A stretch of 64,000 bases of DNA from Candidatus Hermodarchaeota archaeon (GTDB lineage: Archaea > Asgardarchaeota > Thorarchaeia > Thorarchaeales > Thorarchaeaceae): positions 96,001 through 160,000 of the forward strand of contig JBHLLF010000002.1 of assembly GCA_048885865.1 (NCBI GenBank). Direction: 5' to 3'. Positions 3,051-58,799 of the stretch are shown here, one piece after another (position 1 is the first letter of the stretch; each line of letters starts with the position of its first letter). The translations under genes were made by a program, and so were the position numbers. The notes under the pieces were generated by a model. The model saw only the letters and a program-made list of their open reading frames with translations. It made no database searches and was not told the origin of the DNA.

Positions 3051-3320
3051 TAACATATTGTGACTCCATTCTGTGACCCTCAATTGTGGCTCCGCTATAT
3101 ATACTGATTCTGAGTGCTAATTCTTGTGAAATATCATGGCTCTAGCAACTAACTCTCGAAAGTCACACGATTTGAAGAAGAAGCGAACTCTGCCTCCTTC
3201 AACAAGGGCAATAGTCCAGGCTTACCTCTATAATAGGTAAGCACCTGTTATGGGGGAATGGTTCGTGCCCTTCAAATATCCTGACGGTTTTGTGCACTCA
3301 TTCAACCGAAAAAAACGAAT

Positions 3321-3344
3321 GGTTTGGTTGCCAAACCTTTATAT
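3321..3344 (+). promoter_or_regulatory. Archaeal TATA box (TTTATAT 3338-3344) abutted by a perfect 7-bp inverted repeat (GGTTTGG-ttg-CCAAACC)
   Basis: Seen directly; lies ~25-30 nt upstream of the structured element. Confidence 0.5.
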
Positions 3345-3369
3345 GGATTTGGCCCGCACATTCAACCAC

Positions 3370-3720
3370 ACATCATCGGCAAGCAACCAGTTCGTGGAGT
3401 ATAGTGGTTGGTCACTGAGTGCCCGCAACTGCGGTCACTTTCGCCCATTAACGGCTTATACTGTGACCAGACATAATCTACGTGAGGCAAATCCAATGGA
3501 TAATGACCCAAACTGTGTTGTGGCCGGTTCAGCTCAAGATGTTGAAGTGCCCTCCCAGGCGGCTGTTAATGGGCGATCCTCGCTCGAAGGAGCATTTACG
3601 GTCAAGAAGGGACCGAGAGGTCCCAAGCCAGTTGTGGTAGATATACCATACTTAGCAAACTCCTATCTCCGTTGTGGCGCTCTCGGGGTCAAATCCCGGG
3701 AGCGCTACAGCTTACATCTG
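3370..3720 (+). ncRNA. Putative structured non-coding RNA, family unrecognised
   Basis: 16-bp stem 3441-3456/3561-3576; hairpins GCTC-GAAG-GAGC (3582-3593), GGGACC-GAGA-GGTCCC (3609-3624), TGTGGTA-GATA-TACCATA (3633-3650) and a 17-bp hairpin with GTCAAAT loop (3671-3711); wobble pairs are G-U on the + strand; upstream TATA and downstream T-rich tract ~3761. Confidence 0.6.
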
Positions 3721-3808
3721 TGAGGTTAAGAGCCATGGTTTCGGAAGCGCCACATTCTGATTTTTCCTTCTCTATTCACGTTGTCCATAATCGACTGAGG
3801 TTCAAGAA

Positions 3809-38999: not shown

Positions 39000-40076
39000 C
39001 TAAAGTTTCCTCTTTCCAAGCAGAAACTCCTCAACCCATCTCTCAGCTCTATACATGGTTGTAGGTGTGGGAGGCATCTTGAATCCATAGGCAGAGATCG
39101 ATTTCAGTGCTCCACCAATCTCTCTCTTGAGGGCTAATTTCGCACCGCGGATTGCATCCATTAGGATGGGTCCTGCATTTGGGCCATCAGTGACTTCCAT
39201 TCTGATATCAATCTTAATCGGTGCGCCTCCAAACTGGCGGCCATGTATATAGAAGTACGACTCCCTGCTGTTGTCCATGAATGGAACGAAATCTGAAGAG
39301 CCAGCCACGAGAGGAGCGTCATAAGGTAGGTCTTGACTGATTGCACTGCTCTTTACTCCTCGCTTCCTCATACGACCTCGATAATGCGAATCCAGTGACT
39401 CAGCTCCTCCGCCTACATCCAACTGATAGCTTTTATCTACACGAACTCCGCGAGCCACAAGAAGCTGGAGCAAGTTCCTATGAAGCACAGTTGAGCCAAG
39501 CTGGTCTTGAAGATCGTCTCCAATCAGAGGCAGTCCTTTCTCTTCGAATTTGTTGCTCCATTCTTGGTCAGAGGCTATCGGTATTGGAGCGCCATTAATG
39601 AATGCACATCCAGCTTCAAGACTGGCTCCAGCATAGAACTTTGTTGCTTCCTCGGCAGACCCTGGCAAGAGGTTGATGACGACCTCTGCCCCTGAGTCAC
39701 GAAGAATCTTGACAACATCCGAGTCGGATTCGCTGGAAACCGTGATCAATGCTCGAAGCATATCATCTACTCCATCGTGAACAGGACCTTTCTCTACTTT
39801 CACGCCGGTCCTAGGAACATCCGCAAATCGAATAACATTGTTGGGGTTGGCAAAGATTGCATCTGCTAGGTCTACGCCTACCTTTCCTTCAGCCACATCA
39901 AAAGCCGCCACGAAATTGATGTCTCTTACATGAAAACCAGCAAAATCTGGATGGCTAAGACCTACTAGGTCGTCGTTAGCTTTTGTATCTTTATAGTATT
40001 CCACGCCCTGGATTAGGGCGCTCGCGCAGTTGCCTACACCCACTATTGCTACATTTATCCCATTCATGCTATACAC
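39000..40076 (-). CDS. ino1: myo-Inositol-1-phosphate synthase
   Basis: VAIVGVGNCASALIQG, AAFDV..KVG.DL, IGDD, YQL.VGG, AYGFK.PP. Confidence 0.9.
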   Translation of the reverse strand: MYSMNGINVAIVGVGNCASALIQGVEYYKDTKANDDLVGLSHPDFAGFHVRDINFVAAFDVAEGKVGVDLADAIFANPNNVIRFADVPRTGVKVEKGPVHDGVDDMLRALITVSSESDSDVVKILRDSGAEVVINLLPGSAEEATKFYAGASLEAGCAFINGAPIPIASDQEWSNKFEEKGLPLIGDDLQDQLGSTVLHRNLLQLLVARGVRVDKSYQLDVGGGAESLDSHYRGRMRKRGVKSSAISQDLPYDAPLVAGSSDFVPFMDNSRESYFYIHGRQFGGAPIKIDIRMEVTDGPNAGPILMDAIRGAKLALKREIGGALKSISAYGFKMPPTPTTMYRAERWVEEFLLGKRKL

Positions 40077-40184
40077 CTCTGACTACACAGTATAGGCTCG
40101 GGACCGCATTCCCATGGTATACTTTTAAAGTTTTATGACCATATAATAGTGCGTTAATGAGACGTATGAGACCTCGGGGTGGTT

Positions 40185-40460
40185 TCGTCCAGAAGAAATG
40201 CTTATGTTGCTAGGACGCATACTTTCTGGTCGGACGTCTGGCTGAAGCCTGTTGCTCCTCACACATGCAGAAGAGTGTGTGACCGGATTCAACGTCTTTC
40301 CGAATGTCCTCCTGTAGGGAGATTCGGCTCTCACCCAGTGTTCAGAGAACGGCGTTGTATCACGTGGTTTGGAGCACCACTTACTCACGTTCAAATTGAG
40401 AGGGTGGACCTCAAATGCCCAGATGGGCACCAAGTCTTTGGCTCTGGCCAGCGTCCCCCT
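40185..40460 (+). ncRNA. Putative multi-stem non-coding RNA, family unrecognised
   Basis: Closing helix 40232-40249/40440-40456 enclosing at least five hairpins; G-U pairs favour the + strand; AT-rich TATA-like tract 40123-40148 upstream. Confidence 0.55.
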
Positions 40461-40485
40461 ATTCTTCAGGAATCTATTTCTCAGC

Positions 40486-41646
40486 TCAGAGACTCTCAGC
40501 CAATAGATCTACAATATCAGCGACTCCAATTGAGCTTCCTTCCTGACTTGCTCCCGCATCTAGGTTGCTTACGCAGAAGGGACATGCAGAAGCAATGAGG
40601 TCAGCTCCTGTTTCAATTGCCTGCCTAACCCTATCTGACGCTATTCGTTTGGAGAGATCTGAATCATATGAACGTACACCTCCACCTGCGCCACAACATA
40701 GTGCTGCTTCTCTCGTGGATTCCATCTCTACTAACTCTATCCCCGGAATATCAGAGAGAATCTCCCGCGGTGCATCATAAATTCTGAATTCTCTGCCAAG
40801 ATGACAGGGATCATGGTATGTGACTATCCTTTTCCGTCCAGGTCCTCGAAAGCTCAAATCTCCGTTTCTTATAAGTTCAGCCGCATACTCCACAATATGT
40901 ATCACTTGAGGAAGATCAATACCGAAGCGCTTTGGGAAATCCGACTTGAGTGTTTTTAGGCATCCAGGGCAAGATACAACAATACGCTCAGCTCCTGCCA
41001 CTTCAAATGCTCTTTTGATTCGTTCAGCATTCTCCTTAGCTTCCTCCACTCTGCCAGTCCTAATCATGATAGACCCACAGCATGGTTCTTCCCCAAGCAC
41101 CCCGAAGTCTTCCGCAGCTGCACTCAATATCTTCACAGTTGAGATGGCGATGTTTGGAAGTTTCATCCCTGCGGTACATCCCGTGTAGTAAATCGTAGAT
41201 GCCTTGGCTGGGACATCAAATCCGACCTCCCCTACCCAGTTTCTCCTGATGCTGTTGTCATCCTCATAGGGATTCAGATATTTCAGAATCCGTTCTGCAA
41301 TGGCATCCCTTGATTCATTTGGTGCATCACTCAGAACTTGACGGACCTGTTCGAGAGTCTGCTTGGGATCGAATTCAGCTGCGCAAATCTCTGTGCAATT
41401 TCCACATAGCATGCATGTGAAAATCGATTCGACATTTTCTGCAGTCTTCTCCAGCCTTCCATCGAGGAGCGCCTGTGCAACCTGGATTCTCCCTCTCATG
41501 AAGCTGGTTTCGAAACCACTTGAGTTCCTCCAGACTGGACATACGCCCTCGAAGCCTATAGATTCCAAGACGGCATTTCGACAGATGCCACACCTTCTGC
41601 ACTGAGCCAAGTTCTCAAGGAGGTCATCTATGTCTGCTCCGACCAA
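40486..41646 (-). CDS. GlcF/HdrD-like Fe-S protein (2x[4Fe-4S] plus two CCG domains)
   Basis: CRRCGIC, CMLCGNCTEIC, CCGS, YHDPCHLGR, CCGAGGG. Confidence 0.92.
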   Translation of the reverse strand: MVGADIDDLLENLAQCRRCGICRNAVLESIGFEGVCPVWRNSSGFETSFMRGRIQVAQALLDGRLEKTAENVESIFTCMLCGNCTEICAAEFDPKQTLEQVRQVLSDAPNESRDAIAERILKYLNPYEDDNSIRRNWVGEVGFDVPAKASTIYYTGCTAGMKLPNIAISTVKILSAAAEDFGVLGEEPCCGSIMIRTGRVEEAKENAERIKRAFEVAGAERIVVSCPGCLKTLKSDFPKRFGIDLPQVIHIVEYAAELIRNGDLSFRGPGRKRIVTYHDPCHLGREFRIYDAPREILSDIPGIELVEMESTREAALCCGAGGGVRSYDSDLSKRIASDRVRQAIETGADLIASACPFCVSNLDAGASQEGSSIGVADIVDLLAESL

Positions 41647-57359: not shown

Positions 57360-58799
57360 ATGTTTAATTTACTAGGTAGAAACGAAATAGCCGACATCCA
57401 TGTAGCAGCCATGGAGGTTCTTGAAAATGTTGGAGTAATGGTTCAACATGATAAGGCACTGAAACTACTCGGGGATGCAGGAGCAGATGTAGATAAGAAG
57501 TCCAAAGTGGTGAAAATCCCTGAGAGCCTGTTGCAGGATGCTCTGCAGAAATCGCCTGGAAGGCATTTGATGGCATCGCGGAATCCGAAGTACGATTTTG
57601 TGATTGGAGATGGAGCGTCATATTATACGAATGCATTTGGAGCTCATTATACTATAGACTTGGAAACGGGTGAACGAAGACTATCTACACTGAAGGATCT
57701 AGAGGAGTTCACACTTCTTGCAGATTACTTCGCAACTGTAGACTACATCAAGCCAAACATCCTTCCACAAGATGTGTCTAAAACCATCTGGGAACAAGAA
57801 ATGGCTTTGGCTATGTTCAAAAGTGCTGAGAAGCATCTAAGCTTAGTCGCATTAACTCCTCAGGGGTGGAGAGATGTGATTAGAATGTCAATGATTGTGG
57901 CTGGGGGTGAGGAGGAGTTCATCAAGAATCCATCCTTTATTGATACAGGATTCAATAATGTTCCCCCCCTCAAGTATACGCCAGAAATCATTGATATGAT
58001 CCTGGAATGCGCGAAATACAAGATACCATTTGACATCAGTACTGGTGCCCTCGCTAGCGCCAGTGCTCCAGTTACGCTAGCAGGAACAATAGTGCAGGGG
58101 ATAGTTGAGAACCACGTAATTGTAGTCCTAACTCAGCTTGTGGGACCTGGTACACCCATTATGTGGGGGTCCTGCGCAACCATTCTTGACCAACGATATG
58201 GGACCGCAGCCTATGGGTCGCCTGAGAATGGACTAATTCACGCGGCGTTTTCCCAGATGGCTCGATTCTATGGCATTCCCTACTACGGTGCGGCTGGAGT
58301 CATTGACTCAAAGATTCCTGATCATCAGGCCGTATATGAGAACACCATCAATGTACTAGTTGCAACCCTTGCTGGCGCTGATGTTGTACACGACGCAGTA
58401 TACGGAATAGTTGAAGCTGGAGTGACTGCTAGCTATGAGTTGTTCGGAATAAGCAATGAAATCTGTGGAGCCATAAAGCGAATCGCAAAAGGTATGAGAG
58501 TGACAAAGGAGACCCTTGCTGCTGATCTTATTGCAGCAGTGGGACATGAAAAGAACTATCTCAATACCCCAGAAGCATTGAGATTTACAAAGAAGCATCT
58601 ACTAGAGGAACAATGGCAGCCTGTTTTGACTGAACGGGCTTCCAGACCGGAATGGGAAAAGAGAGGTTCGAAAGACATGTTCCAGAGGGCAAAGGAACAA
58701 GTCAAGGAGATTCTCTCCAGTCATGAGGTTGAACCTCTGGGCAAAGATGTGGAAGCAGAAATGCGGAAGATTATAGACAAGAGATCTAAAGGAAAATAG
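57360..58799 (+). CDS. mttB: Trimethylamine methyltransferase (MttB) superfamily protein, pyrrolysine-free
   Basis: IH...EVLE.VG, APVTLAG, GSPE, DSK.PD.QA.YE; no in-frame TAG. Confidence 0.9.
   Translation: MFNLLGRNEIADIHVAAMEVLENVGVMVQHDKALKLLGDAGADVDKKSKVVKIPESLLQDALQKSPGRHLMASRNPKYDFVIGDGASYYTNAFGAHYTIDLETGERRLSTLKDLEEFTLLADYFATVDYIKPNILPQDVSKTIWEQEMALAMFKSAEKHLSLVALTPQGWRDVIRMSMIVAGGEEEFIKNPSFIDTGFNNVPPLKYTPEIIDMILECAKYKIPFDISTGALASASAPVTLAGTIVQGIVENHVIVVLTQLVGPGTPIMWGSCATILDQRYGTAAYGSPENGLIHAAFSQMARFYGIPYYGAAGVIDSKIPDHQAVYENTINVLVATLAGADVVHDAVYGIVEAGVTASYELFGISNEICGAIKRIAKGMRVTKETLAADLIAAVGHEKNYLNTPEALRFTKKHLLEEQWQPVLTERASRPEWEKRGSKDMFQRAKEQVKEILSSHEVEPLGKDVEAEMRKIIDKRSKGK

Follow-up and report, generated by a model that had tools for sequence, protein, structure and literature searches.

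A gene for a structured non-coding RNA lies on the plus strand between two minus-strand genes, ino1 and a gene for a CCG-domain protein, in a genome of the Candidatus Thorarchaeota, and comparison with its homologues shows its strand, secondary structure and distribution. The RNA is single-copy, vertically inherited and located outside the mRNAs of its neighbours. The stretch of DNA under study, here called the window, comprises 64,000 nucleotides. The body of the RNA occupies window positions 40189-40472 (+), where a covariance model (R1) built from 16 sequences matches over 284 nt (model positions 1-288, 281.2 bits, E = 1.3e-83). An original prediction, made without database searches, had proposed an unrecognised multi-stem RNA of no known family on the plus strand of this intergenic gap, and both the presence of a multi-stem RNA gene and this core reading were confirmed. 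All complementary segments that it had listed were recovered by string search where it had placed them or within a few bases, and the gap, given as 410 bp, measures 409 bp.

Genetic environment

The RNA gene is preceded by ino1, encoding myo-inositol-1-phosphate synthase (39000-40076, minus strand; Pfam PF01658, E = 9.8e-18), and followed by a gene for a CCG-domain/4Fe-4S protein (40486-41646, minus strand; Pfam PF02754, E = 3.9e-35). It is divergent from the former, convergent with the latter and overlaps neither, such that the suggestion of an RNA antisense to both flanking genes holds with respect to orientation only. Homologue searches returned the RNA class-wide and as a single copy, with ino1 adjoining in most loci; the class consists here of the window's family and one other genome from a sister family (G025), in which R1 found no match. 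Of the 67 homologous loci, 62 have ino1 upstream in divergent orientation, at a distance of 65-310 nt in 57 cases, and the CCG-domain gene is located downstream in convergent orientation in most. Two loci (L078 and L084) contain the RNA without ino1 within ~1.6-2.5 kb upstream. In five species of the window's genus, an insert of ~800 nt with an unrelated ORF splits ino1 from the RNA, which nevertheless stays conserved, and the promoter box described below remains beside the RNA.

No protein gene is consistently linked to the RNA in the neighbourhoods of the homologous loci. ORFs of 213 aa situated upstream in two lineages were considered in the search for a gene for a partner protein and proved to be mutually unrelated. 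An RGG-tailed OB-fold protein resembling Ssb (PF21473) is encoded 146-272 nt downstream on the same strand in five of 15 genera (g5, with 15 of 23 loci, g4, g25, g2 and one genome of g7), and its gene is not at the locus in the other ten. The gene has its own TATA element (TTTATAGG) and a conserved 5' leader of ~120 nt (L061:2846-2968; also L043, L044, L058, L064 and L070), possibly an autoregulatory leader of SSB. The 3' part of this leader (CUUUUGnnnnCCUGYnAAU) recurs upstream of the SSB paralogues L108-L110 in the window's own genome.

Comparative evidence for structure and strand

When the window's sequence was folded on its own, the plus strand reached -110.1 kcal/mol (z = -2.17 against shuffles) and the minus strand -103.1 kcal/mol (z = -2.09). 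A single sequence is only about two standard deviations better than shuffled controls on either strand, and the proof of structure therefore rests on the comparison of homologues. Covariation was tested on a model alignment of 67 sequences (A3) with 48 modelled pairs, and 500 column shuffles as well as pairing partners slid by one to three columns served as controls. Standard pairs were present in 91.5% of the cells, and compensatory changes on both sides occurred in 36 of the 48 pairs. Not one of the 500 shuffles reached any of the five measures, and sliding the partners reduced pairing to 41-51%. The same core was recovered by RNAalifold irrespective of whether 13 or 67 sequences were supplied.

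The modelled pairs contain 380 G-U cells versus 43 A-C cells, and the fold is therefore one of the plus strand only; the argument from G-U pairs, by which the original prediction had chosen this strand, held. Across genera, sequence blocks such as GAAUGUCC, CUCUCACC, GUUCAGAG and GGUGGACCUC show little or no variation, and the helices vary. A long conserved single-stranded seed was not seen in the RNA.

Architecture of the RNA

The 5' hairpin P0 (40201-40221, +) carries CUUAU in its 5' strand and pairs UAUGU with GCAUA, with 69% of the cells paired in the covariance model alignment. CTTAT is invariant in alignment A2, and its partner in other genera is CAUA, AUAA or AUAAG. P0 lies within the span of the 5' hairpin originally drawn at 40189-40229, the outer stem of which is not supported across the family (45% paired).

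P1, the closing helix, is formed by a 5' strand at 40232-40249 (+) with GGACG, UGGCU and AGCC segments and a 3' strand at 40440-40456 (+) ending in an invariant CGUCC. It held as predicted and is supported by RNAalifold and by covariation, with both-side changes in 12 of 14 modelled pairs. P2 follows, in which GCUCC (40254-40258, +) pairs with GGAGC (40371-40375; 91.7% paired). Its changes are mostly one-sided, leading to G-U, and AGCUUC/GGGGCU in G021 includes a two-sided change. This pairing had been predicted as TGCTCC/GGAGCA and held, but its assignment as a pseudoknot failed. That assignment depends on the GTGGT/ACCAC hairpin, and as this hairpin lacks conservation, P2 is simply a nested helix. 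The 5' side of the hairpin varies while ACCAC is fixed, and ACCAC is deleted in one genus.

The domain closed by P2 begins with the variable hairpin P3 (40259-40282, +), the predicted TCACACA/TGTGTGA stem (UCACACA/UGUGUGA in the RNA), which held and contains the pairs with the highest mutual information of the alignment; pair 40260/40281, for example, occurs as CG, UA, GC and AU. The 5' strands of P4a and P4 (40283-40296, +) pair with 40351-40364. P4 (CGTC/GGCG) is 93% paired with compensatory changes in four of four pairs, and support extends to the proposed GATTCAA/TTGTATC continuation, P4a. Alignment by the model is poor in the stretches that link P3 to P4 and P4 to P2, yet these pair as P4a: of 20 representatives that were folded, most form a good duplex from unrelated sequences, and the duplex is weak in the window (-3.8 kcal/mol) and in L073.

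Hairpin P5 (40300-40327, +) has the form CCGAAU-G-UCC ... GGA-G-AUUCGG. It is 96% paired, seven of its nine pairs show compensatory changes, and the predicted CCGAAT/ATTCGG is thus upheld by covariation. The helix includes a conserved G.G mismatch that is A.A in genus g5. Its apical loop (40309-40318 in the window) often contains a self-complementary sequence of 6 nt that depends on the lineage and is absent from many homologues; examples are CUGCAG, CUAUAG, GACGUC and AAAUUU, and the window has CUGUAG with G-U pairs. The palindrome could conceivably be a kissing-loop site for dimerisation, for which support is weak. P6 (40328-40348, +) corresponds to the predicted CTCT/AGAG helix (CUCU/AGAG) and is backed by covariation, with 100% of the cells paired and compensatory changes in all four of its pairs. 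The loop ends CAC(C) and GUUCA are near-invariant, and P6 as a whole is missing in genus g2.

The 3' domain (40384-40439, +) comprises UCAYGUUYA, the hairpin GAGG-GUGGA-CCUC (40400-40412), the hairpin GCCC/GGGC (40417-40428) and CCAA/UUGG, as indicated by RNAalifold on 67 sequences. The predicted GCCC/GGGC helix held: it covaries as AGCC/GGCU, GUCC/GGAC and UGCC/GGCA. In genera g4, g6, g24 and g27 the domain is rebuilt as one longer helix. The CTCA/TGAG stem proposed for this RNA is not conserved across the family, and the T-loop-like element GTTCAAAT failed as a conserved T-loop; conservation is confined to UCAYGUUYA, with variation at the fifth position of the loop. Both sides of the proposed TCACCC/GGGTGG pseudoknot (UCACCC/GGGUGG) are nearly invariant, as are the further candidates UCAC/GUGG and the 3' tail GUCCACC with GGUGGAC, and there is consequently no covariation signal for or against any of them.

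Promoter box and transcript ends

A conserved box common to ino1 and the RNA is located at 40123-40150. It consists of TTTTAAAG, TTTTATGA and CCATATAATAGT, is partly palindromic and is not assigned to a strand; its function as a promoter is inferred. In most genera a nearly identical box (TTTTAAAGTTTTATGACCATAGAATAGT) is present upstream of the RNA, the form found across most genera being TTTTAAAG-TTTTATGA-CCATAGAATAGT. The box probably represents back-to-back TATA elements, with the left end serving ino1 on the minus strand and the right part serving the RNA on the plus strand. If the right part of the box is the TATA element of the RNA, transcription is predicted to start at about 40160-40172, 22-27 nt past the TATA-like elements, and this placement also accounts for the distance between box and CUUAU, which varies from 12 to 50 nt between genera. 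The RNA would then begin with a variable 5' leader (40160-40188, +). At the other end, conservation stops past CGUCC(A/C)C, and a T/C-rich run comes next in all genera; in the window this pyrimidine- and T-rich tract (40457-40481, +) is inferred to be a probable archaeal terminator and the 3' end. The conserved upstream box and the downstream pyrimidine tract suggest that the RNA is a transcription unit of its own, an inference from sequence that no expression data accompany.

Distribution and natural deletion

The RNA is present once in the window's genome. Of the 16 genomes of the same genus, 12 gave BLAST matches, and partial matches came from five more genera. With R1, one full-length copy was found in 68 of the 86 genomes of the window's family (Candidatus Thorarchaeota), with representation in 15 of 16 genera and in 21 of the 23 high-quality genomes, and an additional copy was recovered from G093 with filters off. 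The length of the 67 homologues ranges from 270 to 311 nt.

Outside the family, R1 with strict filters gave no credible match in any of the 125 Asgard genomes included from the phylum sample and, with default filters, none in 40 genomes from 19 families, where the best score was 18 bits. No R1 match was obtained beside ino1 paralogues. A core model (R2; P4-P6, 65 positions) gave two identical 28-bit matches (G207:C8:73731-73791 and G195:C216:35892-35952), both inside an ORF in AT-rich genomes of genus g39 from another Asgard family; we judged these to be chance matches without examining their context in depth. A pattern scan of the contigs of 185,579 species returned 23 archaeal records, which by title are 18 Candidatus Thorarchaeota, three Promethearchaeota and two 'uncultured archaeon'; five bacterial records were rejected as chance hits by the full model. 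As far as we searched and at the sensitivity of these searches, the RNA is specific to Thorarchaeota within the Asgard archaea.

Genus g28, represented by four genomes of 83-93% completeness, yielded no match to the RNA anywhere. At its syntenic site (L103:1379-1503), only 125 nt separate the gene for the CCG-domain protein (59% identical) from ino1, and the promoter box is retained. This genus has most likely lost the RNA gene by deletion. Since the box is kept where the RNA is absent, it is inferred to serve ino1 as well; and since the RNA has most likely been deleted, it is dispensable in g28 and a core housekeeping role is unlikely.

The RNA belongs to no catalogued family

The original prediction had named a match to a known Rfam family as a possible refutation and RNase P, SRP and riboswitch models as those to be scanned; no such match was found, and the claim stands. 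Rfam 15 (4227 models) was applied to the whole window at gathering thresholds, to 39950-40650 at E values up to 10 and to 14 diverse homologous loci at E values up to 5. The first scan returned PYLIS_3 (58299-58398) as the sole match and none at the RNA, the second only a 13-bit snoRNA match outside the element, and the third a sole match that again lies outside the RNA (L094:2337-2486, with the RNA at 2501-2772). ARAGORN reported neither tRNA nor tmRNA in 40000-40600. The RNA therefore belongs to no family catalogued in Rfam 15 and founds a new one. No description of it was found in the full-text literature searched, and neither was one of any lineage-specific RNA of such size and complexity of fold in Asgard archaea.

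Specific candidates were rejected one by one. A tRNA-like or T-loop RNA is not supported, as the fifth position of the loop changes between A, U and C from genus to genus and the adjoining stem lacks conservation. Archaeal RNase P RNA (RF00373) has no covariance model match at the locus, and the genuine gene is located on another contig of the genome (G000:C4:63429-63766, 162.6 bits). Nor does the RNA form the long-range P4 helix of RNase P: its CR-I-like and CR-V-like motifs instead make up the local hairpin P5 and covary as a hairpin. Archaeal SRP RNA (RF01857) likewise has no covariance model match at the locus. None was found in the window's genome, an 87%-complete assembly; 14 of 16 genomes of the same genus have SRP RNA at loci other than the element, and many of them also carry the RNA described here (in G004, for instance, SRP RNA is at C1:6980-7291 and this RNA at 427390-427676). 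The SRP RNAs of this genus score 84-104 bits, mostly just below the gathering score of 96.5, by which measure the SRP RNA of Thorarchaeota is somewhat divergent from the Rfam model. A guide RNA of a mobile element (omega-RNA or tracrRNA type) is at variance with the single copy and with the ino1-CCG synteny that is fixed across genera.

A protein-coding gene was also rejected, as no reading frame is conserved among the homologues. An open plus-strand frame exists in 19 of the 67, with differing phase at the anchor motifs, and in the other 48 every plus-strand frame is interrupted by stops. The genus contains indels of 1, 2, 4 and 5 nt, none a multiple of three, and Pfam matches neither of the long ORFs.

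Proposed function and alternative explanations

We consider more likely than not a proposal that combines a stand-alone non-coding RNA gene with a role as a protein-bound scaffold acting in trans. The gene would extend over window positions ~40160-40470 (+) and give rise to a stable, highly structured RNA of ~290 nt. Transcription would start from a TATA-like element in the box that is used back to back with ino1 and would end at the pyrimidine-rich tract just before the convergent CCG-domain gene. In the fold, hairpin P0 precedes a body closed by the long terminal helix P1. The first part inside P1 is a domain closed by P2 that holds P3 and a three-way junction of P4, P5 and P6 with near-invariant loop and junction nucleotides, and the second part is the 3' domain with two to three small hairpins. 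The RNA may then act in trans as a protein-bound structural RNA, i.e. as the scaffold of a ribonucleoprotein. We prefer a scaffold to a base-pairing regulator because the conserved nucleotides are placed in helices, at mismatches and at junctions instead of forming a long open seed. It would be useful and not indispensable, given the deletion of the gene in one genus. In the absence of expression data, the transcript and its ends are inferred, as are action in trans and any protein partner. A bolder version, which we regard as unlikely, places the RNA at the core of a ribonucleoprotein or ribozyme that is specific to Asgard archaea and so far undescribed, with the invariant P4/P5/P6 junction as its functional centre. 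The RNA might then work as a homodimer, an idea that derives from the 6-nt self-complementary sequence in the apical loop of P5 in many lineages.

The alternative that survives best, although we consider it improbable, is a trans-acting regulator tied to its neighbours, either co-expressed with ino1 and modulating another process or sequestering, as a decoy or sponge, the RGG-tailed SSB-like proteins. It can draw on the divergent ino1 gene upstream in 62 of 67 loci (65-310 nt away in 57), on the conserved promoter box common to ino1 and the RNA and, for the decoy, on the RGG-tailed Ssb-like gene 146-272 nt downstream in g5, g4, g25, g2 and one g7 genome. However, this ssb gene has its own TATA element and leader and is not at the locus in 10 of 15 genera, and SSB paralogues persist in g28 despite the absence of the RNA. 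A link to ino1 is weakened by the conservation of the RNA where an insert separates the two, and regulation by base pairing in general by the lack of a long conserved single-stranded seed.

Somewhat less probable is a new ribozyme with the invariant P4/P5/P6 junction and loops as its active site. The size, the multi-domain fold, the near-invariant junction and loop nucleotides and a covarying non-canonical pair (G.G to A.A) fit the pattern of catalytic RNAs. On the other hand, the models of known ribozymes give no match, nothing evident in the context points to a substrate or to processing, and g2 lacks P6 while g28 lacks the RNA altogether.

Two further explanations can be all but ruled out. 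The first is a cis element of a minus-strand CCG-ino1 transcript, whether as a structure between the two cistrons or as an ino1 leader or riboswitch. In its favour, the minus strand carries both flanking genes and folds, like the plus strand, about two standard deviations better than shuffles, and the element is situated just upstream of ino1. However, the G-U pairs of the plus strand (380 versus 43 A-C) would be mismatches on the minus strand, and the TATA element of ino1 and the box lie between the element and ino1, placing the element outside a normal ino1 leader. In addition, the RNA persists in L078 and L084, where ino1 is not found in the upstream interval given above, and g28 keeps both genes without the element.

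The second is that a known universal RNA, for example an RNase P/MRP-like paralogue or SRP RNA, is present here in a highly diverged or permuted form. In its favour are a comparable size, a 5'-to-3' order P1-P2-P3 reminiscent of RNase P RNA (the only respect in which the predicted RNase P-like topology held), and a loose resemblance of the short motifs GAAUGUCC and AGAUUCGGCU to CR-I and CR-V of RNase P. It is contradicted by the RNase P and SRP RNA genes at other loci (the former at 162.6 bits, the latter in 14 of 16 genomes of the genus), by the absence of RNase P, MRP or SRP model matches at the region even at E = 10, by the local pairing of the CR-I- and CR-V-like motifs in P5 in place of a long-range P4, and by three hairpins between the 3' strands of P2 and P1, unlike RNase P.

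Comparison with known structured RNAs

OLE, raiA, ROOL and GOLLD are orphan large structured non-coding RNAs of bacteria. They are stand-alone genes of hundreds of nucleotides with many covarying helices and invariant junction nucleotides, restricted to certain lineages and of unknown biochemical function, all of which is shared by the RNA described here. It matches none of them in the Rfam scans and, unlike them, is archaeal (Asgard), single-copy and chromosomal in fixed synteny, and is linked neither to mobile elements nor to a known partner protein. With archaeal RNase P RNA (RF00373) it shares the length of ~300 nt, a terminal helix joining the ends followed by a second helix and a hairpin, and a promoter of its own, which is inferred in the present case; it differs in the lack of a covariance model match and of a long-range P4 and in the extra hairpins between P2-3' and P1-3'. 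Archaeal SRP (7S) RNA (RF01857) is similar in length (~300 nt), as a single-copy gene of the housekeeping RNA type and in its paired ends, but the RNA described here is not matched by its model, has a branched fold instead of a long rod and occurs in relatives that encode SRP RNA at separate loci.

Few RNAs of such a size combine a complex fold with invariant junctions, and the known ones, i.e. RNase P RNA, SRP RNA, tmRNA and the large ribozymes, are central to basic cell biology. Asgard archaea are the closest known relatives of eukaryotes and, to our knowledge, no culture of a member of the Thorarchaeota exists. With an alignment of 67-68 sequences, a tested secondary structure and clear gene boundaries (the transcript ends being inferred), the RNA is ready for in vitro work that does not require a culture, and its natural deletion in one genus provides a comparative handle on its function.

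Additional observations in the window

A second region, an ORF-poor gap of ~700 bp at window positions 3100-3800 (the '3370 element'), contains a strong hairpin, GCGCUCUCGGGGUCAAAUCCCGGGAGCGC; ARAGORN found no tRNA and Rfam gave no match in this interval. The PYLIS_3 match, which corresponds to the pyrrolysine insertion sequence of mttB, is on the plus strand, scores 44.3 bits and points to the possibility that this Thorarchaeota genome makes use of pyrrolysine.
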